Source: Eledone cirrhosa
Lineage: Eukaryota
Reading direction: 5' to 3'
Length of the DNA: 64,000 nt
Assembly: GCA_964016885.1 (NCBI GenBank)
Contig: OZ024746.1
Span: 35,278,001-35,342,000 of the forward strand
The notes beneath the pieces are model-generated. The model worked only from the letters and a program-made list of their open reading frames with translations. It was not told where the DNA came from and did no database searches. Below are positions 1,150 to 52,163 of this stretch, one piece after another (position 1 is the first letter of the stretch; the number at the start of each line of letters is the position of its first letter). A program made the translations under genes and the position numbers.

Positions 1150-1965
1150 ATTTATTTTCTACATTAGGAGATATATATCACAAAAGGCGACCAGATGGTG
1201 TTGATCTCCAAACTATAAGTTTTAAAATTTTAAGACATAGATCAAATGTATCTTCTTCTGGAAAATGTTCTCACCAGCCGAATCTGAAATATTTCTCCTA
1301 CCCGGAAATTGTATGTTTTCTACTCAAGCTTTCATTTCTCCGGGTATATCCTCTTCTTATTAGTGGCCTCGATTGATTTACGTTAATTTGTTTAGTTGAA
1401 ACTATTTTGCGAATTGTTTCCATACTAAGCCAAATTTTCCAAAGTAATCCCCTGTGGTTGATTCGCTAGGGTTGCACGTAACCATTTGTTAGATGGACAG
1501 CTAATAACTTGTCAACACCATTTCTTTCTTTCAATACACTTAACAAAAAAAGACTATTACGTTGCTAGAACATAAGAGCTGAAGAGTAAGAAAAATTCGA
1601 TTTGTAAGTAGTGGTAGTACAAGAAGATTAGTAAACGAGGTTTTTGAGGAAGTATAATTAGAGAAAAGAAGAAGGAAATTATCGACAAGATCCCAGAACT
1701 CATTCGCATACCGAGTTGGCTGGAACTCGTCAAATCGGAAACAATGTTTCCATTGGTCTTTCCATAGCTGATACTATCTATCGATCGCAACTCCTAGCAG
1801 AGTTTAGAAATTCAAGTATATATATTAATAAAGAGCTATCCATAGTTAACTGGTTCCCAACATTGCCTGTATTAAGAAATTAGGATATGTCTCTTATCTC
1901 TTCACAAATGGAAACTGAGAACAGGCTTTGGTCCGCAGAATCGTACATATGAGGGATACACCATT
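1150..1965 (-). pseudogene. Highly decayed L2/CR1-like LINE reverse transcriptase fragment
   Basis: Minus-strand remnants resemble GVP..TILGP (~1930-1962), LLGVAIDR..LWK (~1755-1802) and LFYxxY (~1605-1625) in the expected order, with many frameshifts. Confidence 0.4.
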
Positions 1966-4319
1966 AATTCTAATAGCTTTGAGATTCTATCAAAGTGTGA
2001 GGGGATGAAGTGCAAAGACTAATATGTCATAAACAAAAGATAACAGAATGTAATATAAAACACGAACCTAATATTCTGCGTTCAAATCTAGCACAAGTTA
2101 TGTTGTCATTCGCAATTTGTGTTTGAGAAAAAAAGTACTAGGTATATATTGTGATCAATTCAAGTGACTACATTCATCGATCAGAGTTTGCGGCCATGTG
2201 TTATAAAGTTATTATGATGACGCTATAAAAACACTAAGAATAAGAAGTATGGCAGAAATGATAAGAAGATTTGGTTGTTTCTCATCGCAGATCAATCAAG
2301 TGTGATGAGGATATTTCTTTGGATCTATATATTCTTTGGATCCAGTAATTTACTCTGTTAAACGTAATTGACTCCTCTGCGAATCGATGACCTCGTGGTA
2401 CTTAATATTTTTGTCACAGTTCCGGCTGTAACATTCTCTATTTCCATAGCTTCCACCACACGAATCTTCCTACCAGTCTACCTCCTCTCTCATCTCTAAC
2501 AAATATCTAAGATGCATATATTGGTGTCAATATATGCACCAGATGTAACCACCTCAGTGTCATCAGTTAAAAGTAAAGATATTTCAGAGTCACGAATGGT
2601 TGTGTGTAGTTTTAAGAAGAGAATAAAATGAAAATCATATTTTTTGCGATTCTGCTGAAGATTAATTAGAAATTGATAAAAGACACTTTAATTTATCAAA
2701 ATAATGGGGAATAAATTTGGAATAATATCAAAATATTTCGCTCAAACTTCGAAGTGATTAATTAATATTAGAAGAAGGGTTTTCCTTAATGCATCTAATA
2801 TATCTAGAGCTGGCATTAGAGTTCCATAATAAATTTATTATTCCAGAAAATTGATGGATTACATGTTATATATACACTTACCCATATTCAAATTAAGTTG
2901 ATAATAAAGATAGAACATTAGAACTTATCTAAATTAATGTTATGCGTCTTGTGCTTGGTCCTCATACAATAACAGTACCAATATAAGAAAACGTTGCATT
3001 TAAATGAGTAACAGAAATTAGGTTATCAATTATTGTCTAAAAAGTTGCTACAGTACTCCTCAACCCCCAAAATACTCTACATAACATAACATTTCCTATT
3101 TCTTTGAAATTCCGGTGGGTTTGATAATTATTTCATTCCAGCCAAGTTTAACATTTATATCTGAAGATATGTGAAATTAAAAGAGATATGTATCCGGGGC
3201 TACGTAATGCGAAATGCTTAACATCTTAATACACACTATTTGTAAAAGGATTGGTTATGAAAAATTATTTGTCTTTTTCTGAATAAACTCAATTTATACA
3301 ATGTTTACCAAAGCTCTTAAAATCTGAGGATGATATTCACACGGAGTAGTAAGGTCAAAAGTCAGACAGTGGGCATGGTAACAGTATATTTAATCATCCC
3401 TTATTTCTGAAGATACATAAAATGTTGTTCTGACACTAAAGGAACTCAAAGATCATTCATTGCTGAGAATATTATATTATTATGAATAATTTTATTTTGA
3501 GTAACATAGCAAATAGCAAACCTTTAATTAGTTTCGTGTTTGTCGAAGGAGTCATAGTAATTATAGAAATAGATTTAATGGGCAATTTCATATTAATGGC
3601 AAAAGAGGTGCGAATAAATGTTCTGTATTTCCTGAATTAAAGTGTCAACATCTTTATTATTTATTGTAATTGTGGCAATTAACTTTTGAGTAGAATCTGA
3701 AGCAGCTGCAAATGTAGTAAAAACTGTCACTTGACATTTAATAATATTAGTATTATTAAATTAGAATACCTTTGAGTTTGCCTCTTTTTTCCATACAAAG
3801 AGAATTCTTGGCAAGGCATACGTGTCGATTATGAATCTTGTAACAACAGGAAGGATTTATAAGTCTTTCTAATAGCTACCAGATGCAAAGTATCATTAGA
3901 ATTGTATTTATCATGTCGTAAATACTTTGATACTACATTACGATTGTGAATTTTACAATTGGTATTCCTTAAATACTGTTGTAATGCCTTATTCAAAATA
4001 TTCAGTAAGCACTGATGTTGGTTTTAATGTCGCCTGGCAAGGATAAATAATGTATGTAATGATTCTGATGCTTTTGCCTTACGGGTTTCCATTCTGTGCC
4101 GAAGAAATATATATTTCTAATTTAATATTAATGAAATCAGTAAAGGCACTACGCGATGTAATATATTCATATCTGTTTGTAGAAAAATATTTTCTTTAAT
4201 AAGAAATAGTTATCTTACTTCATCGCTTATCACTTTGTATTAACATGCAAAACCGATGGAGTAATGAACTAAATTTGATACCAAACGTCCGTTATCTCAG
4301 CATTTGTCTATTACAGTTC

Positions 4320-7070: not shown

Positions 7071-7075
<5 letters not shown>

Positions 7076-7371
7076 ATACTTTGGGAGGGTCATGTTGCCA
7101 ATAAGAAACACACGCACCATTTGCTTTCCCTCCAATTTATTATAAATTAAATTTATAAATTTAAGAAATTTGTAAATTTCCGGTTGGTTGGTTGTTTCCA
7201 CAACCGGACGGTTGTGCATATATTGTCAAAGTTCTTTCGTCACACATTCGGTTACCTCTTCAGTGACTGGGGATTCTTTTCTTTGTTTTTGTGCCTCTCC
7301 TTTGTTCTGTCCTACGCCATCTTGTTTTGTGTCTGTGTTGTGTGCTTAGTTTGTGCATGTGTTACATCCGG

Positions 7372-7421
<50 letters not shown>

Positions 7422-7575
7422 TTATTTATTTGTTTATTTATTTGTTTATTTATTTGTTTATTTACATGTTACTAGTTGGCTGTTTGCTCTATGTGTGTGT
7501 GTTTTCATTTTGTCCTTAATCGGTTTCAACACACGTTTTCAGATAAAGAATCTTGCTAAACAAATTCAGAAACGA
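7071..7575 (-). mobile_element. (TA)n-inserted HHR module, family A copy 1
   Basis: TA tracts on both sides; termini ttgttatactttgggagggtcatg and ttcagaaacg recur at 51601-52163 and 13378-13606. Confidence 0.8.
7225..7267 (-). ncRNA. Minimal hammerhead-like motif, family A
   Basis: Minus: GTCA CTGAAGA G GTAAC..GTGAC GAAA GAAC TT TGAC; stem I GTCA/TGAC. Confidence 0.55.
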
Positions 7576-7581
7576 TATATT

Positions 7582-7687
<106 letters not shown>

Positions 7688-7707
7688 GTACTGTTTACCT
7701 TTTACAT

Positions 7708-7753
<46 letters not shown>

Positions 7754-7989
7754 GAAAATAGAGAAATTAATGAAAGCAAGAAGCCAACAGTAATTCAGAC
7801 CATTATGTCAAGATGAAAAATATTTAACGTAAGATGTGGGAAAATAATTTAATCCCAATTCAAAACAAGTCAAGACCAGAAATTTTATCCACAGATTTTG
7901 TGAAATCCGGGGACAAAACCAATAGAATCTTAACTCAAAATAAAATTAAGAGTAAATACTTATCCGTCAATTTGGAAAAATCTACAAAT

Positions 7990-8070
7990 GCACTATATAG
8001 TCTTAACAAGACTATTTCACGAAACTTTTCTGTGGGGTTAGTCACGGTTGGAATCGTTCCGCAGTAGTGC
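7990..8070 (-). ncRNA. Type I hammerhead, family B unit 1 (core mutated to CTGCGGA)
   Basis: Minus: GCACTA CTGCGGA ACGA..TCGT GAAA TAGTCTT gtt AAGACTA TA TAGTGC; all three stems pair. Confidence 0.7.
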
Positions 8071-8618
8071 TCAACAACGTTAACTAAGAACCACAGTTAA
8101 AATATGCCAAAGGGGAATTTAAAAGCAGACTAGTCAAACCTCGTGTGGAATTGAATTAATAAACACACATGGAGAGAGGGCTAGTAACGTCAGAATGAGA
8201 CGAATGTCTGTTTACAAGAAAATAGCAGTCAAAACATTCCGCAAAAAACTCAACAGAAGATATGAAGTTCAGCATAAAGCAATATTATCGCGGTTTTTTA
8301 AAATAAAACCGGGATTAGTCACAAATAATTTTAAGCACTCAAGGAAAAGTTCCGAGTATAAATATATAAATGAAAATAGAGAAATTAATGTAAGCAAGAA
8401 GCCAACAGTAATTCAGACATATAAGTGACTATTACGTCAAGATGAAAAATATTTAACGTAAGATATGGGAAAATAATTTAATCCCAATTCAAAACAAGTC
8501 AAGACCAGAAATTTTATCCACAGATTTTGTGTAATCCGGGGGAAAAACCAATAGAATCTTAACTCAAAATAAAATTAAGAGTAAATACTTATCCGTCAAT
8601 TTGGAAAAATCTACAAAT

Positions 8619-8699
8619 GTCCTATATAGTCTTAAAAAGACTATTTCACGAAACTTTTCTGTGGGGTTAGCCATGGTTTGAGTCGTTCCTCAGTAGTGC
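8619..8699 (-). ncRNA. Type I hammerhead, family B unit 2 (intact core CTGAGGA)
   Basis: Minus: GCACTA CTGAGGA ACGA..TCGT GAAA TAGTCTT ttt AAGACTA TA TAG; stem I shortened by substitutions. Confidence 0.75.
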
Positions 8700-8793
8700 T
8701 CAACAACGTTAACTAAGAACCACAGCTAAAATATGCCAAATGGAAATTTAAAAGCAGGCTAGTCAAACCTTATATATATATATATATATATAT

Positions 8794-8986
8794 AACGAAG
8801 GAAAGTGGTAAAGAACCAGGTGAACCATAACGCACCAAAGTACTCAATACTTGGGGTAGTAGAGTGGGTAATAGGAACCAGTAAGACCCCGACGGCTGAG
8901 CTCAAGCCGTTTCGACGGCTAATTGAGTCCAGAATTAGCCGTCGAAACGGCTTGAGCTCAGCCGTCGGGGTCTTACTGGTTCCTAT
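8794..8986. mobile_element. (TA)n-inserted fold-back module, family G, with the 3' half of a hammerhead
   Basis: Perfect 54-bp inverted arms 8871-8924 and 8933-8986; each arm has GAAA CGGCT..AGCCG TC (stem III + GUC); terminus related to 20160-20215 and 54235-54290. Confidence 0.75.
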
Positions 8987-9008
8987 ATATATATTTATAT
9001 ATATATAT

Positions 9009-9266
9009 AAAAGAAAATGAAGTTAAAAAACAAAAAAAAGGAATAAACGAGACGTCCTACACAGGTGAAAGTATACGGAAAAGAAATTGAAAATGTAACT
9101 GGAGTCTTTTAAGAATATTTATTTATCTTGCATGCGAGACAAACCACAACAGAAACACGAACCCTCCATCTCAATTTTACTTTTGAAAATCATAAGAACT
9201 GTGAAACCGGTAAAGTAAATAAATAAATATTCTTAAAAGACTCCGATTACATTTTCAATTTCTTTT

Positions 9267-9270
<4 letters not shown>
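9009..9270. mobile_element. (TA)n-inserted fold-back module, family E copy 1
   Basis: Inverted arms ~9078-9126 and ~9219-9268; homologous to 63550-63899. Confidence 0.75.
9176..9219 (+). ncRNA. Minimal hammerhead, U3-A8 core variant (family E; stem II decayed)
   Basis: TTTACTT TTGAAAA tcat aagaa ctgt GAAA CCGG TA AAGTAAA; 7-bp stem I, palindromic ACCGGT stem III. Confidence 0.6.
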
Positions 9271-9306
<36 letters not shown>

Positions 9307-9428
9307 ATATATACATATATATTATGCACACTCTATATATATATATACCTATATATACATATATATATATATATACCTATATATACATATATATTATGCA
9401 CACTCACATATATGTATATATATATACC

Positions 9429-9481
<53 letters not shown>

Positions 9482-10151
9482 ATATATACATATATATTAT
9501 GCACACTCACATATATGTATATATATTTATATATACATAATATACATGTGTGTATAAATACATTCATTGCTATTAAATTAACACGTCATTGTATATTTTG
9601 CTCTTGAATAGTATGTTATGTCATATTCACCAAGCCGCTCTACCTCCCAGGCTTAATAGAAATAAATCCAATTTATCGTTTTCATCTGGCTTCATAAATA
9701 TAAGATATCTGACTGGATAATGAATTTATCAAAGGCCGCTACGGAATGATCGTTTAACATAGGAACTATAATACCTATTGATGACACTGTTGATTATAGT
9801 AATTTCTCAAGTGTGAAAATCATTGTGATCCGCAATTTCAAGTAGTCAATCTCCAACCATATTTTACACCTGAATAACTGTGAACTAACGAAGCCGTTTC
9901 ATCGACATTGTATAGTAAATGGTAAGCCCACCATCTACACGGGACTCTGTGATCTCACTTAATTATAATTCTATTGTTTCTCCTCAGCCGAAGCGGATAC
10001 ATCTTTCACCTTCTACTCTTAGTAATTATCATAACAACATAAGACAATTACAAAATAGTCAAAACTCTATCATCATCAGCAGCAACAATAACAACAATAA
10101 AAACAAAAACAGTATCAACAACAGTAGCAGTAACAACAAAAAACAACAATA

Positions 10152-10372
10152 ATAATTGTTTCTACTTTTGGAACAAGGTCAGCAATTTGAAGTGGAAGAG
10201 GAAAGTCGTTTAAACAGACCCCAGTTTGTTACTAGTGCTTATTTTATTGACCCGGAAAAGATGAAACGCAAAACTAACCTCACCGGGATTTGAACTCAGA
10301 ACGTAAAAGGCCGTAACTCTATGTCGATAAGTATGATGTCCGACGCTCTACCGGTTCTGAAAATCCACCACC
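10152..10372 (-). mobile_element. SINE S1, near full length
   Basis: Reverse complement of the S1 pattern, including gggatttgaactcag and aatccaccacc. Confidence 0.8.
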
Positions 10373-10734
10373 TTTTATTTAAACTTTAAGAGAATTGACC
10401 TACATCCTCATTCATATATAGTAAACATGAACCGCGCAGGTTTTGACAAACAAGTTATAGAAACTGTTATGCATTAATTGTGAAGACAAGCTTATACATT
10501 TACAGGGAACGCATGAAATAATTAAAGGATTATAAAAAAACATAAATACAAGATTTAATTAAAAACAGCAGCTTCCCTATATAGATATGGAAAGCAGTCA
10601 CTTGCATTCATCGGAGTATCTAAGAATTGTGATTACTCAACAGACCTAATAACTCTCTGCACTGTTACATGCTGAAAAGTGAAGAATCTTCCATATCGGA
10701 TTCTTGGGACAGGACAAGAGAAACAAGTAGGAGT

Positions 10735-10942
10735 CTACTAGAGCGTCGAACAACATCCTTCGCGACATTTAGTTACGGCCCTTTACGTTCTGAGTTCAAA
10801 TCGCACCGAGGTTAGCTTCGCCTTTAATCCTTACGGCGTCGATAAAATAAAGGACCAGTAACACGCACTGGGGTCATTTTAATCGGGTTTCCCTTCCCCT
10901 TCAAATAACTGACCTTGTGCCTAAGGTAGAAACAGTTATTTA
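10735..10942 (+). mobile_element. SINE S1
   Basis: gttctgagttcaaatcgcaccgaggttagcttcgcc...gaccttgtgcctaaggtagaaac. Confidence 0.8.
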
Positions 10943-11849
10943 AGACTGTTTCTACTTTAGAACTTTGTAGTAAAGTTCTCTAGTTTCTACTTTAGAACTT
11001 TACTACAAAGTGAACATGTCTCTGGTTCATATAATCCACATCTTTTCTTATCTAAAGTCGTGTGGAATGTTCTAGCACATTTGACAAGTTTCACTGATCA
11101 GTCCTTTGTTAACCTTGCTATAAAATATAAATATTATCGGGAGTTGTGCACCCCTTCACAGAAAAATGTTTTTCCCTCCCCTATTTGCGTTTTGAATGTA
11201 TTTCCTTTTGCTCTGTTTTCGCTTTTACTTTTGCAAAGCTATCGGATCACACTCGATTCGAGCTTCTACCTCATCCTCGCGTGTAGATGTGGAAGGCGAG
11301 GTGTAGGCCTGCAGCGAAGATTGCTTCGATATCAAACAACTCACCTTCTACACATTATCTGCCGCATAATATAAAGGAAACTATAGATCATACACACACT
11401 CGTCACCTACACGAAGACACACAATGCATACAGGTTGTACAAAACCGAAATACGATCACCACCTAATAAAATAACACTTCACACGCAGTGCACAAACTCT
11501 ACAAAATAGAAGAAACACTAAATAATACCAGAAACCACGAAAGAAATTTCTCAACGAAATAAAGCAATGTCTATACAAACACAATTCTACATTTCTAAAA
11601 AGTATTGCTGAACACATCTCAAGAACTGGGAGATACCGCTGGTGGCATAACACTTTTGAAAATAAGATGACAATAAAAATGTTTCCCTTATGTACAAGTC
11701 ACACATTCTGGAGTATAATAGAAATAGTTGCATGAGCGAGTGGTGTGTACCTACTCCTCAATTCAGTTTGTATCATAATTTTAAGTGAAAGAATGAGGAA
11801 GCGAATGTATGTTTATACCTAGTGTTTATACGTAGCCGTGTATACTCAG

Positions 11850-11883
<34 letters not shown>

Positions 11884-11884
<1 letters not shown>

Positions 11885-12012
11885 GAAGCGAAAACCAACC
11901 AAACAGTGAGTGTGTTCTATTATTAATACGAGAAGCGAAAACCAACCAAACAGTGTGTGTGTTCTGTTATTAATTCTGGCAATATTACGCAAATATGACC
12001 CTCCCCAAATAT

Positions 12013-12016
<4 letters not shown>
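11884..12016 (+). mobile_element. (TA)n-flanked module with a family A-like terminus
   Basis: Ends atgaccctccccaaatataacaa, close to the reverse complement of the family A end; internal ~47-bp direct repeat. Confidence 0.55.
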
Positions 12017-12048
<32 letters not shown>

Positions 12049-12055
<7 letters not shown>

Positions 12056-12930
12056 GAGTAGAAAGAAGAATACTGCGTGGTTGCACATGGGTTACATATG
12101 ATAAAATTAGTCCTTCGTCAGTGATTTGCCAACCATCATTGATATTTCATCGCATTAAAAATCATATACCTCAGCTTGGTGCGAGCAATAATTAAAAAAA
12201 GTTATTGGGACCAGTAAATCGCGTAAAGCGAGGGGGGGGGGGGGGGGGGGGGGCAGGATAAAAGCAAACCAAAGATAGGAAAATAAACAAGCAACATGGT
12301 TGTCCGGTCAGCATAAGCTGGTGGATTTCCTGAGCGATCAAGATGCAGACCGTCCGTCGTGAGTGAGATGTGAGCAAGAAGAGAACCCACTACTAGCCAA
12401 ACGGAAGGAAGTGAGAAGGGGAGAAACAGAGAGTGAGTGAGTGGAAGTGCGAGGAAGAGGTCAGTCGAGAGAAAGTGTAACTGACAGAGGGGGCGAAAGA
12501 AGGTGAGAGCAACAGAGAGAACGAGGAGGCAGAAAGAGAGAAACAGACAAACGCAGCCGGGGTAAATATATATAAAAAAACATGAGTAGAAAGAAGAATA
12601 CTGCGTGGTTGCACATGGGTTACATATGATAAAATTAGTCCTTCGTCAGTGATTTGCCGACCATCATTGATATTTCATCGCATTAAAAATCACATACCTC
12701 AGGTTGGTGCGAGCAATAACTAAAAAAAGTTATTGGGACCAGTAAATTACGTAAAGCGAGGGGGACAAGTAAACAACATAGAAGGATAAAAGCAAATCAA
12801 AGATAGGAAAATAAACAAGCAACATGGTTGTCCGGTCAGCATAAGCTGGTGGATTTCATGAGCGATCAAGATGCAGACCGTCCGTTGTGAGTGAGATGTG
12901 AGCAAGAAGAGAACCCACTACTAGCCAATC
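12049..12930 (-). mobile_element. (TA)n-inserted partial tandem dimer, family C1 (unit ~528 bp)
   Basis: catgagtagaaagaagaatactgcg at 12053 and 12581; second unit truncated ~12928. Confidence 0.85.
12108..12213 (-). ncRNA. Candidate permuted/pseudoknotted hammerhead-like RNA (C1 unit 1; unit 2 at 12636-12741)
   Basis: Minus order GGTAT-A-TGATTT ... T-GAA-ATATC ... AAATCA-CTGACGA-A; helices covary with family C2. Confidence 0.5.
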
Positions 12931-13093
12931 ATATATATATATATATATATATATTTATTTATTTACAGTAGGAGTTCATATATTTCTTTTAAAAGATTGT
13001 ATGTAGTCGTGTGTACAGTTTATTATATTTCAAAACGAGTTTATTTATATGTATGTATGTATATATATAATATATATATATAATATATATAAT

Positions 13094-13177
<84 letters not shown>

Positions 13178-13184
<7 letters not shown>

Positions 13185-13360
13185 TTAAATGAGAAAAAAA
13201 TTCTAATTCTTGGAGTATGAACAAGATAGGCGAAAGCATTTTTCTATCTGCCTTCGCTTGTTTATACTATCATCATTTTTTTCTCATTTAATTTTAATAT
13301 ATAATATTACTTCACTGAGAGATTTCTTTTCACTGATATGTTCGTGTATTAGAGACTTTA
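13178..13360. mobile_element. (TA)n-inserted fold-back module
   Basis: atattaaaattaaatgagaaaaaaa paired with tttttttctcatttaattttaatat, plus inner agtatgaacaag/cttgtttatact. Confidence 0.6.
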
Positions 13361-13377
13361 ATATATATATCTATATA

Positions 13378-13600
13378 TTTCGTTTCTGAATATGTTTAGC
13401 AAGATTCTTTATCTGAAAACGTGTGTTGAAACCGATATTGTTATACTTCGGGAGGGTCATGTTGCCAATAAGAAACACACGCACCAATGCTTTCACTCCG
13501 ATTTATTGTAAATTAAATTTATAAATTTTATTTATAATAAATTGGAGTGAAAGCACTCGTGCGTGTGTTTCTTATTGGCAACATGACCCTCCCAAAGTAT

Positions 13601-13606
<6 letters not shown>
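13378..13606. mobile_element. Rearranged family A copy (inverted right end + left end + inverted left end)
   Basis: 13381-13435 is the reverse complement of 7520-7574; 13438-13535 is the left end; ~13535-13606 is its inversion. Confidence 0.8.
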
Positions 13607-13638
<32 letters not shown>

Positions 13639-13642
<4 letters not shown>

Positions 13643-13878
13643 CAAGAGATAAGAGTAACATGGTTGTCTGTACAATAAGGGCTTTATTCCATGTTACTCT
13701 TATCTCTTGAATTATTATTACTACAAGTATAACCTACATAGAAATCACCGTGAACTCGCTGCATCACAATGCGTCTTGTTGAATCAAACTAAGCCATACA
13801 TAATACCATCCACAACACAGAGTACTCTAACTGGACTACCTCTAAGTGGATTGCCTATAACGATAACTTGTTATCCCG
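13639..13878. mobile_element. (TA)n-inserted fold-back module
   Basis: aattcaagagataagagtaacatgg and ccatgttactcttatctcttgaatt form perfect 25-bp arms; TA tracts on both sides. Confidence 0.6.
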
Positions 13879-13900
13879 TATATATATATATATATATATA

Positions 13901-15072
13901 TGATAATAATGGAGCTGCGGCGTTGCAAATGGGTTACATATGAAAAAGTTTGTCTTTCATCAGTGGTCTTCCAACCGTCCTAGGCATTTCATCGCTTTAA
14001 AGACCATATACCTCAGGTTGGTGCGAGCAACGGCTAAAAAAAGTCGTTGGGACACGTAAATAAAGGGGACGGTAGGGTAAACAAACAAAATGGTTTAAGC
14101 AATAGAAAGTGATGAATAAAGAGACAAGTCCCAGATTTCTATGAATATAAATTCGGTGAAATCGTGAACGAGAGAATAAAGACCATCAAACCTGGTTGAA
14201 ATGTGAGCAAGGAAGGAATTTCGCACAGGTCTAACGGGAGGAAGAAGGGGTCTGGTCTGCGAATTCGGTAAACATAAGTTCTGTGAAGTCGCAGACGAGA
14301 GAGAGAGAGAGAAAAAAATTCATACCGGCTTGACCAAGAGGGTGCGAGAAAAGAATTACGGACAGGTCAAACGGGAAGAAAGAGGAGGAGGAGAGGTAGT
14401 GACAGAGAATGAGTGAGTGAAGGGTGAGGAAGAGGCTAACAGAGAGAGAGAGACTGCTAGAAAGGGTAAAGATACAAAGAACGAAACAGACGGGTAGCAG
14501 CAGAGGAAAAAATATATGTGTAAATATGATAATAATGGAGCTGCGGCGTTGCAAATGGGTTACATATGAAAAAGTTTGTCCTTCATCAGTGGTCTTCCAA
14601 CCGTCCTAGGCATTTCATCGCTTTAAAGACCATATACCTCAGGTTGGTGCGAGCAACGGCTAAAAAAAGTCGTTGGGACACGTAAATAAAGGGGACGGTA
14701 GGGTAAACAAACAAAATGGTTTAAGCAATAGAAAGTGATGAATAAAGAGACAAGTCCCAGATTTCTATGAATATAAATTCGGTGAAATCGTGAACGAGAG
14801 AATAAAGACCATCAAACCTGGTTGAAATGTGAGCAAGGAAGGAATTTCGCACAGGTCTAACGGGAGGAAGAAGGGGTCTGGTCTGCGAATTCGGTAAACA
14901 TAAGTTCTGTGAAGTCGCAGACGAGAGAGAGAGAAAAAATATTCATACCGGCTTGGCCAAGAGCGCGCGAGAAAAGAATTATGGACAGGTCAAACGGGAA
15001 GAAAGAGGAGGAGGAGAGGTAGTGACAGAGAATGAGTGAGTGAAGGGTGAGGAAGAAGCTAACAGAGAGAGA
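13901..15072 (-). mobile_element. (TA)n-inserted partial tandem dimer, family C2 (unit ~626 bp)
   Basis: tgataataatggagctgcgg at 13901 and 14527; units nearly identical; first ~150 bp homologous to C1. Confidence 0.85.
14577..14680 (-). ncRNA. Candidate permuted/pseudoknotted hammerhead-like RNA (C2 unit 2; unit 1 at 13951-14054)
   Basis: Minus: TGTCC CAACGAC ttttttta GCCGTTG c TCGC a CCAACC tga GGTAT A TGGTCTT taaa GCGA T GAA ATGCC taggac GGTTGG AAGACCA CTGATGA A GGACA. Confidence 0.55.
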
Positions 15073-15086
15073 ATATATATATATAT

Positions 15087-15545
15087 GTAAAAGTTCTATT
15101 TAAATTGTTGGGATACAACAAGCAAATATTTTTATAACTGATATAAAGCACTCAACAAATATTTGGTGTAAAAATACAATATTAACAAATGAAAACTATA
15201 TTTATAAAACCATATTTATTTCATTATACATATTTCAAAAACACCAAGTTAGATTATGGTGTGCTTTCATCAGATAAAATATAATATAGATCAGTTTTAT
15301 AAATAAATATTGACATACCCTTAAAGAATGCAACCATTACTGTTGGAAGCTCCCGGATAGACTATCCGGGAGCTTCCAACAGTAATGGTTGCATTCTTTA
15401 AGGGTATGTCAATATTTATTTATAAAACTGATCTATATTATATTTTATCTGATGAAAGCGCACCATAATTTAACTTGGTGTCCTTGAAATATGTATAATG
15501 AAATAAATATGGTTTATAAATATAGTTTCCATTTGTTAATATCGT
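15087..15545. mobile_element. (TA)n-inserted long palindromic module, family D copy 1
   Basis: ~180-bp inverted arms 15179-15360 and 15362-15542, centre at 15361; homologue in the opposite orientation at 37122-37588. Confidence 0.85.
15441..15505 (+). ncRNA. Minimal type I hammerhead, family D (mirror copy on minus at 15217-15281)
   Basis: TATTTTAT CTGATGA AAG.CACCA..TGGTG.CTT GAAA TATGTA TA ATGAAATA; 8-bp stem I, self-complementary stem III; predicted cut after 15497. Confidence 0.8.
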
Positions 15546-32290: not shown

Positions 32291-32845
32291 TTAGGTAAGG
32301 CGGGTCTTCTCTGTTACTGAGTACCGCCAAAGGTCTCGGTCCAGTGACATTGTCTTGGAGAGGTGTAAGTGTGTGAGGTCGGAGTTTATCAGCTCGTCCC
32401 AGGTTTTTCTAGGTCTGCCTATTCGGTGGCTACCGTCTATCTTTATTGCCCTGCACTTTGTTATAGAGCTATCGACTTTCATGCGCATCACGTGTCCATA
32501 CCAACGTAGCCTTCTCTCGAGTAAACATCTGATCCCTCTTATTTCTAATTTTTTCCTTAGTTCGTTTATGCTTTGCCGTTCACGTATATTACTGTTACAC
32601 ATCCAGCGGAGCATGCAAGCTTCGTTCCTCTCTAGTCTGCGTATATCCTCTGCACACAATGCCCAGGTCTCACTGCCATGCAACATTGCTGTTCGTATGC
32701 AGGCATCGTACAACCTGCCTTTCATTTTTAGGGAGAACCCTTTAGCAGCTAATAGTGGTATAAGCTCTCTGAACTTTTTCCAACCAGTTCTGACTCTAGC
32801 TACTGTACTTTCAGAGCACCCTCCCCCACTGCTGATTTTTATCAC
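32291..32845 (-). pseudogene. RTE ORF fragment: C-terminal region
   Basis: MLHGSETW, RRLRWYGHVMR, GRPRKTW. Confidence 0.9.
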
Positions 32846-33509
32846 CTAGGTAACGGAAACTGTCCACTATTTCTATAGAACCCTCTGCGCAATTGAAAGA
32901 GCTAGTATTTTGTGGGCACTTGCTGCTACTTATTGCACCAGAGCACCGGCCACATGTAAAATCTATGTTCTTAGTTAGCTTACCTGTGATCCCACTACAT
33001 CTTTTATGCACCCATACTTTGCATTTAGGACATAAAATGGAGTTTCTACCTACGCCTTTCCTACACACCGAGCACGACCATTTCCCAGAAGGGACCGCCG
33101 CCTTATTTTCTTTCCTACAAACTAGAACTTTAGTCTTAGCCAGGTTAATTTTAAGGCCTTTTGATTCTAGGCCGTGCTTCCATGTTTGGAATTTCTTCTC
33201 TAGCTCGGCCATTGATTCCGCTATGAGTGTCAGGTCGTCTGCGTATAGGAGTTCCCATGGGCAGCCGGTCTTGAACTCCTCTGTTATAGCCTGAAGGGCA
33301 ATAATAAATAGTAGGGGGCTGAGAACAGAGCCCTGATGGACGCCAACTTTTACGCTAAACTCTTCACTATATTCGTTGTTAATTCTAACCTTGCTGACTG
33401 TTTCTTTATACATGGCTTGTATAGCTCTCACAAGCCATTCGTCAACGCCTAGTTTTCTAAGAGCCCACCAGATAATGGAGCGGGGGACTCTGTCGAAGGC
33501 TTTCTCCAA
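32811..33509 (-). pseudogene. RTE ORF fragment: reverse transcriptase core plus C4HC3 finger
   Basis: KAFDRVPR, GVHQGSVLSP, YADD, followed by CSVC..CPKC..H..C..CGRC. Confidence 0.9.
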
Positions 33510-33813
33510 GTCGACAAAAGCTAAGTAGAGGGGTTTACCTTTAGCTAGGTACTTCTCCTGTAGTTGTCGTACAATGAAAAGAGCGTCTGTGGTATTTTGC
33601 CTGACACAAACCCGAACTACATTTCATCTAGGTCAATTCTCTCTCTGATTAGTTGTGCTGTTACTTTTTCCGTGACCTTCATGACCTGGTCGATTAATTT
33701 AATGCCTCTATAGTTACTCCTATCTAGGGCGTCTCCTTTACCCTTATAACAGTTAACGATGATGCTGCTATGCCAGTCCTTCGGAACAACCCCATTCTGT
33801 ACGACTTGGTTAA

Positions 33814-35247
33814 CTATCGGGTGACCATGGTGTGTCCCACCGTACCAGATGCCTTCAGCATCTCAGCAACTATTTCCGAAGGCCCAGCCGCCTTACCCGT
33901 CTTCATATCCTTGATTGCCTTACTTATTATACTCCCCTCGACTAACACTGCTGGTCCCTCTATTGGGTCGATATGAGGGAGACTGTCTTTCTCCCATTTA
34001 TTCTCCTCATTTAGTAGCCTTTCATAGTGACACTTCCAAGCTACCTTCTTATCAGCGTCGGTGATGGCAAGTGTGCCATCATCGTTTAGTACACACTTCT
34101 CCCCGACAATATCACGGTTTTCCTTGACGCATTGCCTAGCAATCCTGAACACCTCACGTGTTTGGTCATCGCGTTGTAGAACATGCTTGAACTTTCTTTC
34201 CTCAGCTTCCCTTCTTGCTAAGTACACTTGTCTACTAGCTTCCCTCCTGGCCACTTGATAGTCTTCTCTACTTCCCCCATCCCGCCATACTTTCCAAGCC
34301 TGCTTTTTGGCCTTAATTGACCCCTCCACCTTACTGTTCCACCACCATGTTACTCTCCACCTGCCTACAAGCCTGCTCCAGCCACAGACTTCGTCTGTCG
34401 CCAACAGCAGGTTTGCTTTCAGAAATTCCCACTCTCCCTCTATATTGTCCGACTCTAAATGTTCTTCCTTACTGTCGAAAGCATCAAGTAATATGCTTTG
34501 AAATTTATTCCTGACTGTGGGGTCCTTTAGCTTCCATATTTTTCTCCTGAGGATAGTTCTCTTCTGCTGTCGAGTACGTCTCGTCCTGACTATGAGGTCG
34601 CTAATTATCGGTCTATGCTGGGAGGTGCATTCTTCATGGCGGAGGGATTTAGTGTTTACAACAGACACTCTATCACGTCTTCTGGTAAGGATATAATCTA
34701 CCTGGCTTGTGTGTTCCCCGGATCTATAGGTGATCAGGTGATTGTCACGTTTTTTGAAGTTAGTGTTACAGATAGTTAGGTTATTTGCATCACAGAATTC
34801 CAGGATTCTGGAGCCTTCCTCATTTCTAGTACCAAACCCATACCCTCCATGGATTTCGTCGTAGCCGTCACAATGTTGTCCAACGTGACCATTTAGGTCG
34901 CCTGCAATAATTATATAGTCACTGTCGGATATTTGGGAGGTAGTTAACATCAGTGTCTCATAGAATCTGTCTTTTATAGTGCCGGGCAGTCCGGATTGGG
35001 GTGCGTACGCAGATATTACTGTCACCGTAGTTCTATTGAGGACAAGTTGTATTTTAATTATTCTGTCGTTCACTCTATTTACGTCTATTATCTTATCTGC
35101 CCACTTTTCTGCTACCATGATTCCTGCTCCACCCAGCCCATCGTCGTTTCCCACCCAGAAAAGCTTATAACATCGTTTTTTACCCTCAATGAATCTAGCA
35201 GATCCACCCCTCCACCTGGTCTCTTGAATACAACAAACATCGACCAA
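33814..35247 (-). pseudogene. RTE ORF fragment: apurinic-like endonuclease and linker
   Basis: 477-aa ORF with APE motifs; lacks the N-terminal strand of the domain. Confidence 0.9.
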
Positions 35248-37121
35248 ACCTTAATTCCTAGCGTATTTTCAAACCTCAATTCCTAATTCTAGCGTATTTT
35301 CAAAACAAAACAAAATCCTTTCCCTTCTTCCTTCTTTCGAAACTCTAAACTCCCGCTTCCTCGACCCCCCCCCCCCTTCCCTCTACTTCGCGAGGGCATG
35401 GCGGTCAACCGCCCAATACACACACATCATGCGGCCAACCCCAACCCCCTATCTCTCTCTCTCTTAGCTCTCTCTCTCTATATATATATAAGATAGAAAT
35501 TCACTTCGCCAAATTTCATTACATTGCTGTCTTCCCCCACGATATTCATGTAACGTAATGTACATATTTTTCTTTCATCTCTACCTCCACACTCCTATTT
35601 CGTATCAAGTCCAAATAGCCAATCTATTGCTAAAACAATCTACATTTTTTGTATCATTAATTGTTAGATACGAAAGTTTTTGTCGTATTGAACAGAGCAA
35701 ATTTTGTATTTTTGTTAATCGCTTGTTAAATACAAGGACCCCATTCAATCATTACCTTCTATCTGCTAGATTCATTGAGGGTAAAAAACGATGTTAATAT
35801 ATATTATATATATATATATATATATTATATATATTATATATATATTTATATATATATATGGATACAGAATGATAGGCACATGGATAGATATATAGATATA
35901 GGTGTAAATAGATGTGGGATTAAGAAGTTCACTTTGCAACAATATGAGTCCCTACTCAATCATATTCTATAATATTTGTGGATGTATTATTTCATATAAC
36001 TCATGTTGACCAAAGTATTTTGATTAAATTTGAGTAAATAGAAAATGGTTAAGCTCATCAGATGAACTCTATTTGATTTAAAGAAGCAATTTTCTAATAT
36101 GCTCATTTTGATTTAGGATTACATGAATGGTACAACTTCCTCAGCTATTTAAAATATAATTCAATGACTAGTTAGTTCACTTCTTTGAGGGACTAGATTA
36201 CTTGTCAAAACCAATAGCTTTATTTCCTCATTCATATAAAAGATGTGTGTATTTCAGTATATAAGCATTAACATATGTGTGTGTATGTATATATGTTTAT
36301 ATATGTACAAGTGTGTGTATATATATATGTATATACACACACACACACATATATATGGGTATGTGTTTCTGTATAAGTGTATATCTATGTATGTATATAT
36401 ATTTTTATATACAAATATGTATATGGTTTTGCTATCTAAATTTTGGCTATCTCTACACTGCCTAAGTGATTTTACTTTATCTAACACCTGCCAGGCCATC
36501 CAAGGAAGTGTAGTGAGCCAGAGGTGTTGGTGGTCATGGTTTTATGATCTTTGTATCTTAGCAACAGCTAATGCTGTTAGGTAATCTTTATGTACGAAAG
36601 TAGGGCAGTAGATAACATTAATACCGAATGTGTTTAGATAATACTCATGGTAGCAGAAGTATATTGAATACACAGTTATATAAACTCAGATATAAGTTTA
36701 TATGCAAAAATTGTGTGTGGGGTATGCACACAAATACTCACACACATATTAATATGTAGACATATGCACACAAAAACATATTGAAATAACATGCTTATTC
36801 CTGCATTGTATGTGTATGATTTATATACAGTATATTCTCAGTATTTGTGCATGGAGGGATGAAAGGCTGTTACTAGCAATCAAACTTCATTCTATGCACC
36901 AGGCTTTCACTAATAATTGTAGTGGCCATGTAGTTGCAATCACACCTTTAAATATGGTGTCTAGGAGATGTGGGGTTTTGATTCCTCCTAGCAGCTGGTG
37001 GGCACTTCTTTTTCCATCTTCATCCTATTTTATATTTATGTGTAATATTTATATATATATATATATATGTGTGTGTGAATGTATCTATATATATAGGTAT
37101 ATATATATATATATATATATG

Positions 37122-51606: not shown

Positions 51607-52163
51607 ATACTTTGGGAGGGTCATGTTGCCAATAAGAAACACACGCACCAGTTGCTTTCACTTCAATTTAATTTAATATATATTTATAAATTTACAAATT
51701 TATAAATTTCTGGTTGGTTGGTTGGTTCCACAACCAGATAGTTGTTTATATATATATAGTCATAGTTCTTTCGTCACACACTCTGTGACCTCTTCAGTGA
51801 CTGGGGATTTCTTTCTTCGTTTCTGTGCCTTTCCTTTCTTCTATCCTACGCCATTTTGTTTGTGTGTGGGTTGCGTGCTCAGTTTGCGCATGCGCCACAT
51901 CCGGGTGTCTGTGTGTGTTTGTGTTCATTTTTCTATTTTTCTATTTTTATATTTATATTTGTTTGTTTATTTATTTATTTATTGTTGGTTGGTTGTTTGT
52001 TCTATGTGTGTGTGTGTTTTCATTTTGTCTTGTGTGTGTTTTCATTTTGTGTGTGTTTTCAATTGTAAGTTGTTTATATATGTGTGTGTGTGTTTTCATT
52101 TTGTCCTTAATTGTAAGTTGTGATGTTGCTGTTCCACTGTTGCTGTTCCAATTCAGAAACGAA
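51601..52163 (-). mobile_element. Family A module, copy 2
   Basis: Colinear with 7071-7575, same termini. Confidence 0.85.
51758..51802 (-). ncRNA. Minimal hammerhead-like motif, family A copy 2
   Basis: Minus: AGTCA CTGAAGA G GTCACA gagtg TGTGAC GAAA GAAC TA TGACT. Confidence 0.65.

Follow-up and report, generated by a model that had tools for sequence, protein, structure and literature searches.

Hammerhead-bearing tandem repeats of Eledone cirrhosa begin at TA-rich patches and are probably inserted into (TA)n by a Penelope-like enzyme

How Penelope-like elements (PLEs) prime reverse transcription, and why they have ribozymes, are open questions; in the sole in vitro system, copying starts internally at sites without homology to the target, and cleavage is not needed. 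Three repeats, termed B, C1 and C2, in a 64,000-nucleotide stretch of the Eledone cirrhosa genome (contig OZ024746.1, positions 35,278,001 to 35,342,000; hereafter the window) bear on these questions. Their families offer natural, countable junctions at which start sites match the target. The elements and their surroundings are as follows, in window coordinates.

7751 to 8770, minus strand (RNA sense): element B, a 618-bp unit and 391-402 bp of another; self-alignment gives 1.65 units with copies 92.5% alike
12050 to 12928, minus strand: element C1, one 528-bp unit plus 351 bp; copies 92.4% alike, 1.66 units by self-alignment
13902 to 15072, minus strand: element C2, one 626-bp unit plus 545-548 bp; copies 97.7% alike, 1.87 units by self-alignment
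7575 to 7750, no strand: (TA)n target left of B, read from the sequence
8771 to 8795, 12017 to 12049, 12931 to 12962, 13880 to 13901 and 15073 to 15087: (TA)n runs flanking B, C1 and C2, similar to the run left of B

A sequence-only reading of the window had proposed partial tandems of about 1.65-1.9 units, and self-alignment bears this out for all three elements, each lying in (TA)n. That length describes the window copies but belongs to the long tail of the distribution: of 90 unselected C2 arms, only 26 run past a single unit. B, C1 and C2 are members of abundant families of dispersed tandem repeats (311, 184, 47 and 702 exact motif matches). Frame and Pfam checks found no open reading frame with reverse transcriptase (RT) and GIY-YIG domains in the three elements, and their three stop-to-stop frames of at least 100 amino acids gave no Pfam match. 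Non-coding tandem repeats with one hammerhead per unit resemble the animal non-LTR retrozymes, for which descent from PLEs and mobility by way of circular RNA have been proposed (Cervera and de la Pena 2020, PMC7229834; Li, Clavereau and Pollet, bioRxiv 10.64898/2026.07.22.740005). Relative to the passages of these papers drawn on here, the present units are longer (528-626 bp as opposed to about 150-450 bp), their circles are predicted, and the hammerhead, type I in retrozymes and in B, is permuted in C1 and C2. Those passages do not map insertion ends or start-site patches, both of which are mapped here.

End maps were built from mid-unit queries and motif-ordered samples; unit-start queries gave biased maps. 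The sequence-only reading had named a fixed left end and a variable right end as support for its model, and this is what the maps display. All 81 pattern-selected C2 arms, a sample not chosen by start, begin at one of two sites, 54 at an outer site and 27 at an inner site 40 nt within the unit, a second start that the earlier reading had missed. All 40 C1 arms and 33 of 35 B arms begin at the unit start, the fixed B start recurs in 25 of 30 arms found with a mid-unit query, and right ends are scattered. The left end, previously taken as the RNA's 3′ end, is a fixed start site but not a ribozyme-made end: copying starts internally, 105-256 nt from the predicted cut. First-pass ends do not pile up at that cut, although 3-4 second-pass ends do fall there. 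The start sites coincide with the following patches.

8357 to 8368, minus strand: TA patch at the B junction, whose end is matched by the left end at 7751
12566 to 12577, minus strand: C1 junction TA patch and A-run (TA part 12566-12574)
12092 to 12101, minus strand: C1 inner TA patch, where the second start falls in 1 sampled arm (L320)
14512 to 14527, minus strand: C2 junction TA patch, an (AT)8 that is degenerate and fixed, with the same sequence at 41 of 55 junctions
13934 to 13943, minus strand: C2 inner TA patch, the second start site, used by 27 of 81 pattern-selected arms

The junction patches lie where they had been proposed, near 8357, 12566 and 14512, with each left end inside its patch. 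Start sites occupy the best or nearly best TA match of each unit, beyond chance: all 8-mers that match (TA)n at 7 or more of 8 positions lie at the junction, both among the 528 positions of C1 (7 such 8-mers) and among the 618 of B (8), as do 2 of 3 in C2. Inner sites contain a TA run of at least 4 nt in 6 of 7 families examined (four Neptune families plus C1 and C2, which are related), as compared with a 4-nt run at 0-4% of nearby positions. At the Neptune sites the run measures 7 nt in one family and 4 nt in two, and the fourth has a (TA)n tract; no perfect TA run was found at the inner site of family D. The outer site also bears a 6-7 nt TA patch in two Neptune partial tandems (L181 and L187). 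Equally good patches at C2 position 252 and B positions 244-249 are not used as starts. Searches of the open-access literature gave no paper linking UA patches to start sites.

The register of the starts differs among families. The start is in perfect-pairing register in 25 of 39 B copies but in only 3 of 88 C2 outer starts, 28 of which place a mismatch 1-2 bases from the primer end. In C1, where homopolymer errors blur the figures, a hand count gives 3 of 21 with a parity of 11:10. Modal starts in C1 and C2 bear a near-terminal mismatch. The C2 outer start classes all differ by even steps and so keep the register. Start class shows no tie to C2 subfamily (permutation p 0.26-0.43), so that the start would be chosen anew on RNA bearing the patch. 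Every main C2 haplotype has all start classes. Of the earlier proposal that priming by (TA)n pairing gives target specificity, the placement of starts on TA patches survives; base pairing as the single source of specificity does not, given the rarity of perfect registers in C1 and C2, the unused patches and the second C2 start.

The two C2 start sites are combined in head-to-head insertions: 24 of 29 join an outer to an inner start, and none of the 29 joins two outer starts. An adjacent inverted arm accompanies 35 of 90 unselected C2 arms. The same outer-inner pairing is seen in each of 4 Neptune insertions that have two arms and both RT and GIY-YIG frames; their families are young, with coding sequences 96-99% identical. 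The C2 pairs show the PLE "tail" footprint, common to the young Neptune PLEs of this genome. The window itself contains a Neptune example.

9010 to 9270, no strand: 3′-end remnant of a two-armed Neptune PLE, a relative of family L182; one arm ends at the inner site and the other bears the tail (tail identified by eye)

The tail and inverted-arm footprint was seen once in C1 (L320) and in none of 48 B loci. Autonomous Neptunes of this genome carry a zinc-finger linker and form partial tandems with a matching footprint. Since B, C1 and C2 always begin at their own TA patches, as do the Penelope-type elements of the genome, an enzyme that they would borrow likely begins copying inside the RNA, aided by a few base pairs with the cut TA target.

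These features place the repeats among known PLE systems. As described in Craig 2021 (PMC8557442), Naiad and Neptune PLEs share the (TA)n targets, partial tandems, inverted 5′-truncated arm and optional tail, but not the lack of an open reading frame. PAc, a Poseidon PLE of Anolis, has two internal RT starts that delimit a tail of 30-40 nt, and it does not need ribozyme cleavage in vitro (Frangieh 2024, PMC11167929). AT-rich targets, tandem organization and the cutting and extension of both strands are common to PAc and the present elements; PAc, however, is autonomous and its start is not homologous to the target, whereas the start sites described here bear TA patches in non-coding elements. 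Short internal target-complementary stretches also adjoin the hammerhead in the endonuclease-less PLEs Athena and Coprina, as described in PMC8557442; those elements attach to telomere overhangs without an endonuclease, while the targets here are internal (TA)n.

One hammerhead-like motif per unit on the minus strand had also been proposed. The motifs are present in that number and orientation, as type I hammerheads in B and as permuted, type-SGC hammerheads in C1 and C2.

7990 to 8070, minus strand: type I hammerhead of B unit 1, likely dead, with C in place of core A6; cleavage predicted between 7996 and 7995
8619 to 8699, minus strand: type I hammerhead of B unit 2, with an intact core and a stem I that breaks after 3 pairs; cleavage predicted between 8625 and 8624
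12110 to 12213, minus strand: type-SGC hammerhead of C1 unit 1, with one broken pair in the helper helix; cleavage predicted between 12165 and 12164
12638 to 12741, minus strand: type-SGC hammerhead of C1 unit 2, likely dead, its cleavage-site base having become G
13952 to 14055, minus strand: type-SGC hammerhead of C2 unit 1, with an intact core and one broken pair in the junction helix; cleavage predicted between 14007 and 14006
14578 to 14681, minus strand: type-SGC hammerhead of C2 unit 2, with an intact core; cleavage predicted between 14633 and 14632

Most ribozymes of the window copies carry damaging changes. In B, CUGAnGA, GAAA, UH and three stems in circular order define a type I hammerhead; of 56 distinct copies, 38 retain both core strings. 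Position N7 is free to vary, and subfamilies differ by a two-sided swap of one stem I pair. Stems I and III form on folding, and the stem II loop is unusually long (~30 nt). In C1 and C2 the alignment gives the block order cleavage site, GAAA, CUGAnGA, that of the non-circularly permuted type SGC. After overlapping loci were de-duplicated by flank, the 12 core positions are intact in 148 of 163 C2 units and 52 of 60 C1 units. Over 17 related rows, consisting of cluster representatives and window copies, the fold has 11 compensated pairs (among them 4 of 7 stem I pairs and 1 of 5 stem III pairs, changed on both sides) and 94% of cells paired, compared with 26-51% when slid. The corresponding values for family D are 81% and 24-43%, its pairs showing no covariation above shuffles.

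Type-SGC hammerheads (HRIMA-1 and variants) come from metatranscriptomes, with none in genomes of known organisms according to Eckert 2023 (PMC10085705). C1 and C2 share with HRIMA-1, as described there, the S-G-C block order, all core bases, stems I and III and a short linker between stems I and II. They represent a variant architecture without a simple stem II or I-II interaction helix: stem II amounts to one base pair, beyond which a separate 5′ strand helps to build a multi-way junction, and stem III is bent into an additional helper helix that extends it, for a length of ~105 nt rather than 80. Rfam searches at gathering and E-value thresholds returned no ribozyme in B, C1 or C2; the matches were hairpin miRNA models on palindromes. 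A type I or II hammerhead, HDV-like, twister or pistol assignment of the C1/C2 motif fails, as either the order of the strands does not fit or stems are absent. Should the SGC fold cleave, an animal genome would contain hundreds to thousands of copies of a non-circularly permuted ribozyme so far reported from environmental RNA.

Copying for more than one turn, also part of the sequence-only reading, is upheld by arms longer than one unit and by shared variants, which point to one homogeneous template. Adjacent C2 units have subfamily alleles in common in 118 of 143 cases (37 expected), as do the two C2 arms in 108 of 122 (40.5 expected), and 7 private alleles occur in both units where 0.06 are expected. 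Two units do not form a cap, as 4 of 90 unselected C2 arms are longer. Stops concentrate in the 85 nt after a full turn (9 of 26, versus 6 of 90 on the first pass). The second-pass stop ratio is 2.0 in the unselected sample, mostly from these first 85 nt, with values of 2.6-2.7 in other samples inflated by sampling; past 85 nt no significant rise in stops is seen (ratio 1.4, p 0.16). The shared variants and the stop pile-up favor, without proving, a circular template, and the shared alleles would be equally compatible with a homogeneous linear multimer.

Taken together, these observations suggest that B, C1 and C2, protein-free ribozyme repeats that start at UA patches, probably enter (TA)n through a PLE enzyme, most plausibly from a unit circle. 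A PLE protein would bind near the ribozyme and cut (TA)n, and RT would begin inside the RNA at one of two protein-positioned sites ~40 nt apart, where the UA patch could let the cut TA end anneal over ~4-8 bases. Copying would run for a random length, often beyond the unit junction, on a template that is probably a unit-length circle formed by hammerhead cleavage and ligation. Extension of both cut ends on one RNA would yield a head-to-head pair, one arm with a tail and one without.

The role given to pairing can be contested from two directions. The patches might be relics of earlier (TA)n targets trapped at junctions, or protein-binding sites, with an endonuclease picking the target and a protein setting the start, with no pairing, as in PAc, whose start sites lack target homology (PMC11167929). 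The zinc-finger linker to which the (TA)n bias is ascribed in Craig 2021 (PMC8557442) is present in the Neptunes of this genome, and the near-terminal mismatches of modal C1 and C2 starts and the even parity in C1 agree with such a reading. Nevertheless, we consider it rather unlikely: inner sites are not unit junctions yet have the TA runs noted above, the C2 junction patches are fixed instead of variable remnants, and the C2 outer classes keep their register. The opposite extreme, the strong form of the sequence-only reading, lets (TA)n pairing with the junction patch set both target and start. Although that patch gives each of the three units its best (TA)n match and B is mostly in perfect register, a weaker second site serves one third of C2 arms, equal patches lie unused and perfect registers are rare in C1 and C2, which makes this form very improbable.

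The template, too, has a competing explanation, which we doubt but take as a real possibility: a linear, uncleaved read-through transcript of a genomic tandem, with ribozymes as passengers or later-acting and no circle copied. PAc uses unprocessed RNA (PMC11167929), autonomous Neptunes give partial tandems with the matching footprint, few arms exceed two units, and a transcription start could underlie the stops at 36-85 nt of the second unit. Such a template is harder to reconcile with the lack of recurrent left-versus-right unit differences (at most 3-4 repeats), with private alleles common to both units, with the presence of all start classes in each main haplotype and with ribozyme stems kept by compensatory changes; copies would also be expected to shorten each generation unless re-elongated. 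Duplication of dispersed monomers in DNA after insertion is disfavored for most arms, and we give it hardly any weight. The five-unit arm L268, in which inner units differ by 0-1 of 604 bases, looks like a later DNA duplication, but in general the junction is always at one fixed patch, right ends are scattered, and three-unit arms diverge evenly by ~1-2%.

No significant 3′-end match linked the repeats to any of five sampled autonomous PLE families (best p 0.014 of 15 tests, uncorrected), and a Hydra or Poseidon link for B was not supported. Cephalopod Naiads are long inactive, according to Craig 2021 (PMC8557442), and motif searches of the genome found no intact Naiad: the first published motif had 0 matches, and the second had 95 as against 10 in the control, 30 of these loci when read being a decayed non-coding family and chance matches without a Naiad frame. 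The young Neptune proteins with long open frames are material for testing priming.

A broader and somewhat unlikely extension is that (TA)n-targeting PLEs prime like telomerase, with short UA patches in the RNA annealing to the cut TA end, that their parasites supply an SGC-closed circle copied for more than one turn by one dimer from both cut ends, and that Naiads share the knotted ribozyme. Craig 2021 (PMC8557442) reports no canonical hammerhead in Naiads and flags Naiad_Ovul as "HHR_half_core"; cleavage by the SGC fold would explain these "half-core" motifs. The C1/C2 SGC fold is readable by eye at the published 3′ ends of Naiad_Ovul and Naiad_Obim.

Self-alignment of the window confirmed the positions that the sequence-only reading had given for three protein-free, ribozyme-bearing repeat elements. 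All three are partial tandems of 1.65–1.87 units lying between (TA)n runs:

7751–8770, minus strand (RNA sense): element B, unit 618
12050–12928, minus strand (RNA sense): element C1, unit 528
13902–15072, minus strand (RNA sense): element C2, unit 626

The same alignment reveals kinship between C1 and C2 across about 150–200 bases (76–82% identity) and no relationship of B to either. Three long stop-to-stop frames within the elements matched no Pfam family. DNA searches of the genome (3.0 Gb, 1796 contigs) yielded 1523–3231 first-look candidates per family; exact motif matches number 311 for C2, 184 for C1, and 47 for B, and one C2 left-end junction occurs exactly 702 times. A probable SINE is repeatedly inserted in B units, within their first 25 bases, at the sampled loci L033, L051, L053, L124, L132, and L133.

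The predicted combination of a fixed left end and a variable right end was borne out. All 81 C2 arms (single copies, some of them in head-to-head pairs) chosen through an internal motif begin at one of two sites ~40 nt apart. The outer site, which covers unit position 1 and points 8–12 bases deeper in the junction patch, accounts for 54 and the inner site near position 40 for 27, with none starting elsewhere. At least six alternating TA bases lie directly left of 74 of these arms. Damaged or unclear arms account for 8 of the wider set of 135. Motif-bearing arms begin at the unit start in 40/40 cases for C1 and 33/35 for B (25/30 for B with a mid-unit query). Among the first 90 matches to the C2 left end along the genome contig named C1, right ends range from 15 to over 1490 bases; 26 arms exceed one unit, 4 exceed two, and 35 are joined to an inverted arm. 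Head-to-head C2 pairs (n = 29) comprise 24 outer–inner, one inner–inner, four with damaged arms, and no outer–outer combinations. C1 yielded one partner arm lacking the tail, the stretch between the two sites, and B no inverted arms across 48 loci. In two unrelated insertions (L236 and L250) the arms are joined identically, with C2 position 92 meeting position 97 inside the ribozyme, and C2 stops on the first pass, before one full unit is copied, cluster at 86–101.

A search for GIY-YIG domains in the genome returned 10595 candidates, of which 50 loci were read. Long frames of Penelope-like elements (PLEs) encode an RT followed by GIY-YIG, most with the cysteine linker of the Neptune clade, as assigned from the description in Craig 2021. 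Three Neptune families are young (94–99.5% identical) and terminate against (TA)n at either of two sites 40–65 bases apart; their two-armed insertions combine a tailed and a tail-less arm in 4/4 cases, and a remnant of this type lies inside the window at about 9010–9270. Frangieh 2024 (PMC11167929) describes a PLE that cuts and extends both strands in vitro from two internal RNA start sites flanking the tail. Given these in vitro starts and the shared two-site, two-arm pattern, the fixed ends of the B/C elements are most likely PLE start sites. Alignment of their 3′ ends to five PLE families gave no significant match (best p 0.014 among 15 tests, uncorrected).

Neptunes L181 (4309–7122), L182, L183, and L187 have paired pseudo-LTRs and long open frames (at most 938–1096 codons stop to stop), some of which include simple repeats; their proteins are candidates for in vitro work. 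By eye, the 3′ regions of L181, L182, L196, L198, and L199 contain minimal hammerhead-like motifs with U3/A8 replacing C3/G8 and a palindromic stem III, while family L184 carries a canonical minimal core at its 3′ end. Short palindromic inserts within (TA)n at 8871–8986, 13180–13300, and 13640–13715 of the window are likely two-armed PLE-type ends truncated within 50–60 bases.

The start sites coincide with TA patches, as had been proposed. When each unit position is rated by its 8-base match to (TA)n, all 7- or 8-base matches fall at the junction in C1 (7/528 positions) and B (8/618), as do two of three in C2, where the commonest start is a 6/8 match, a score reached by 24/626 positions. Although a patch at a junction might be an earlier target that became trapped there, the inner sites are not unit junctions. 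Those of C1 and C2 open with a 4-base TA run (0.4–1.3% of positions nearby). Among Neptunes, the inner sites of three families have runs of 7, 4, and 4 bases, and that of one further family has a (TA)n tract; the inner site of the decayed family D, a second non-coding family, has a 6/8 match without a TA run. L181 and L187, independent Neptune partial tandems, share the same 6–7-base patch between tail and coding start. Subfamily does not predict the start class of a C2 arm (91 arms, p 0.26–0.43), which indicates that the start site is picked afresh on patch-bearing RNA.

Base pairing, the guide originally envisaged, does not by itself explain these starts. A 4-base match precedes 54 of the 88 outer starts in C2, 28 have a mismatch that lies one or two bases away from the end of the primer, and the perfect 6-base register is used just 3 times. 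By hand count, the left A-run equals the internal A-run in 3/21 C1 arms, with even and odd offsets at 11:10; B is in perfect register in 25/39. Equally good patches at C2 252 and B 244–249 are unused as starts. A protein would instead define the start window, with assistance from a few base pairs. In Frangieh 2024 (PMC11167929), the start of PAc, a Poseidon PLE of Anolis, is reported as non-homologous to the target, whereas B/C start sites match theirs; they resemble the telomere-matching stretches described for the endonuclease-less Athena/Coprina PLEs in PMC8557442.

Adjacent units share subfamily alleles far above expectation (C2 118/143 vs 37; B 40/58 vs 8.5; C1 15/27 vs 4.8), as well as private C2 alleles (7 vs 0.06), and no recurrent left-versus-right differences emerged from these comparisons. 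Both arms of single C2 insertions likewise share diagnostic alleles (108/122 vs 40.5). Three-unit arms diverge evenly by about 1–2%; near-identical inner units at L268 look like a later duplication. Since the predicted cut is not the end point of any first-pass arm, the usual template is not a linear monomer released by cleavage. In an unselected sample (n = 90), C2 stops per 100 bases rise from 0.20 in the first pass to 0.39 in the second (p 0.006), with the excess falling in the first 85 bases past a full turn (9/26 vs 6/90); beyond these, the second/first-pass ratio is 1.4 (p 0.16). Second-pass ends cluster at 65–83 in C1 (12/23) and 36–64 in B (6/20), where first-pass rates are unmeasurable. 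One possible template is a linear multimer of homogeneous units whose transcription starts nearby; a circle would account for the homogenization, the absent length cap, and the stalling upon return to the start, and it is the form toward which we lean.

The B ribozyme is a type I hammerhead whose stem II loop is 30 bases long. A comparison of 56 distinct copies shows free variation at N7 and one stem I pair in which both partners have been exchanged; of the two units in the window, the first no longer has A6 and the second has a broken stem I. Hammerhead types I–III were rejected for the C1/C2 motif, as none fit. Its strands come in the sequence cleavage site, GAAA, CUGAnGA, which is the type-SGC arrangement described by Eckert 2023 (PMC10085705). 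Over 17 rows, 94% of cells pair in this fold (26–51% in slid controls), and 11/34 pairs change on both sides (1–5 when slid); 0/500 shuffles attain these values, a control inflated by row relatedness. All twelve core positions are intact in 148/163 C2 and 52/60 C1 units, and the SGC hammerhead is predicted to self-cleave. Alignment A1 of this fold places a bend between stem III and a helper helix at columns 65–67 and 98–103 (NGA opposite RUGAU), which we take to resemble a kink-turn. This bend, and a one-pair stem II opening into a junction, distinguish C1/C2 from the published motif of Eckert 2023 (PMC10085705), which reports no SGC ribozymes in genomes of known organisms. By eye, the C1/C2 helices and core can also be read at the ends of Naiad_Ovul and Naiad_Obim in Craig's supplement, where the tail that comes next contains a TA patch; Craig 2021 (PMC8557442) flags Naiad_Ovul as half-core. 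Family D follows the same SGC plan with different helix sequences and no covariation within the family. This older family (L271–L300, e.g., L283:1450–1620) lacks the side hairpin and has two end sites some 40 bases from each other.

That PLEs move tandem repeats with hammerheads is already known from PMC7229834 and bioRxiv 2026.07.22.740005; neither patch priming nor a genomic SGC hammerhead was found in the open-access literature searched. The B/C elements are a real, ordinary class; what is uncommon about them is that the ribozyme is permuted and that the start sites match the target.

Further repeats lie nearby. An abundant (TA)n-flanked repeat at 7073–7570, whose minus strand contains a hammerhead-like motif near 7263, has copies or arms at 11992–12016, 13361–13608, and about 51640–52100, with several arms forming inverted pairs. 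A near-perfect 154-bp inverted repeat at 15207–15515 has one hammerhead-like motif per arm, at 15273 on the minus and 15449 on the plus strand, and is very abundant in sequencing runs of unrecorded kind. A broken LINE frame with endonuclease and RT, presumably RTE-like, occupies 32291–35250 on the minus strand.
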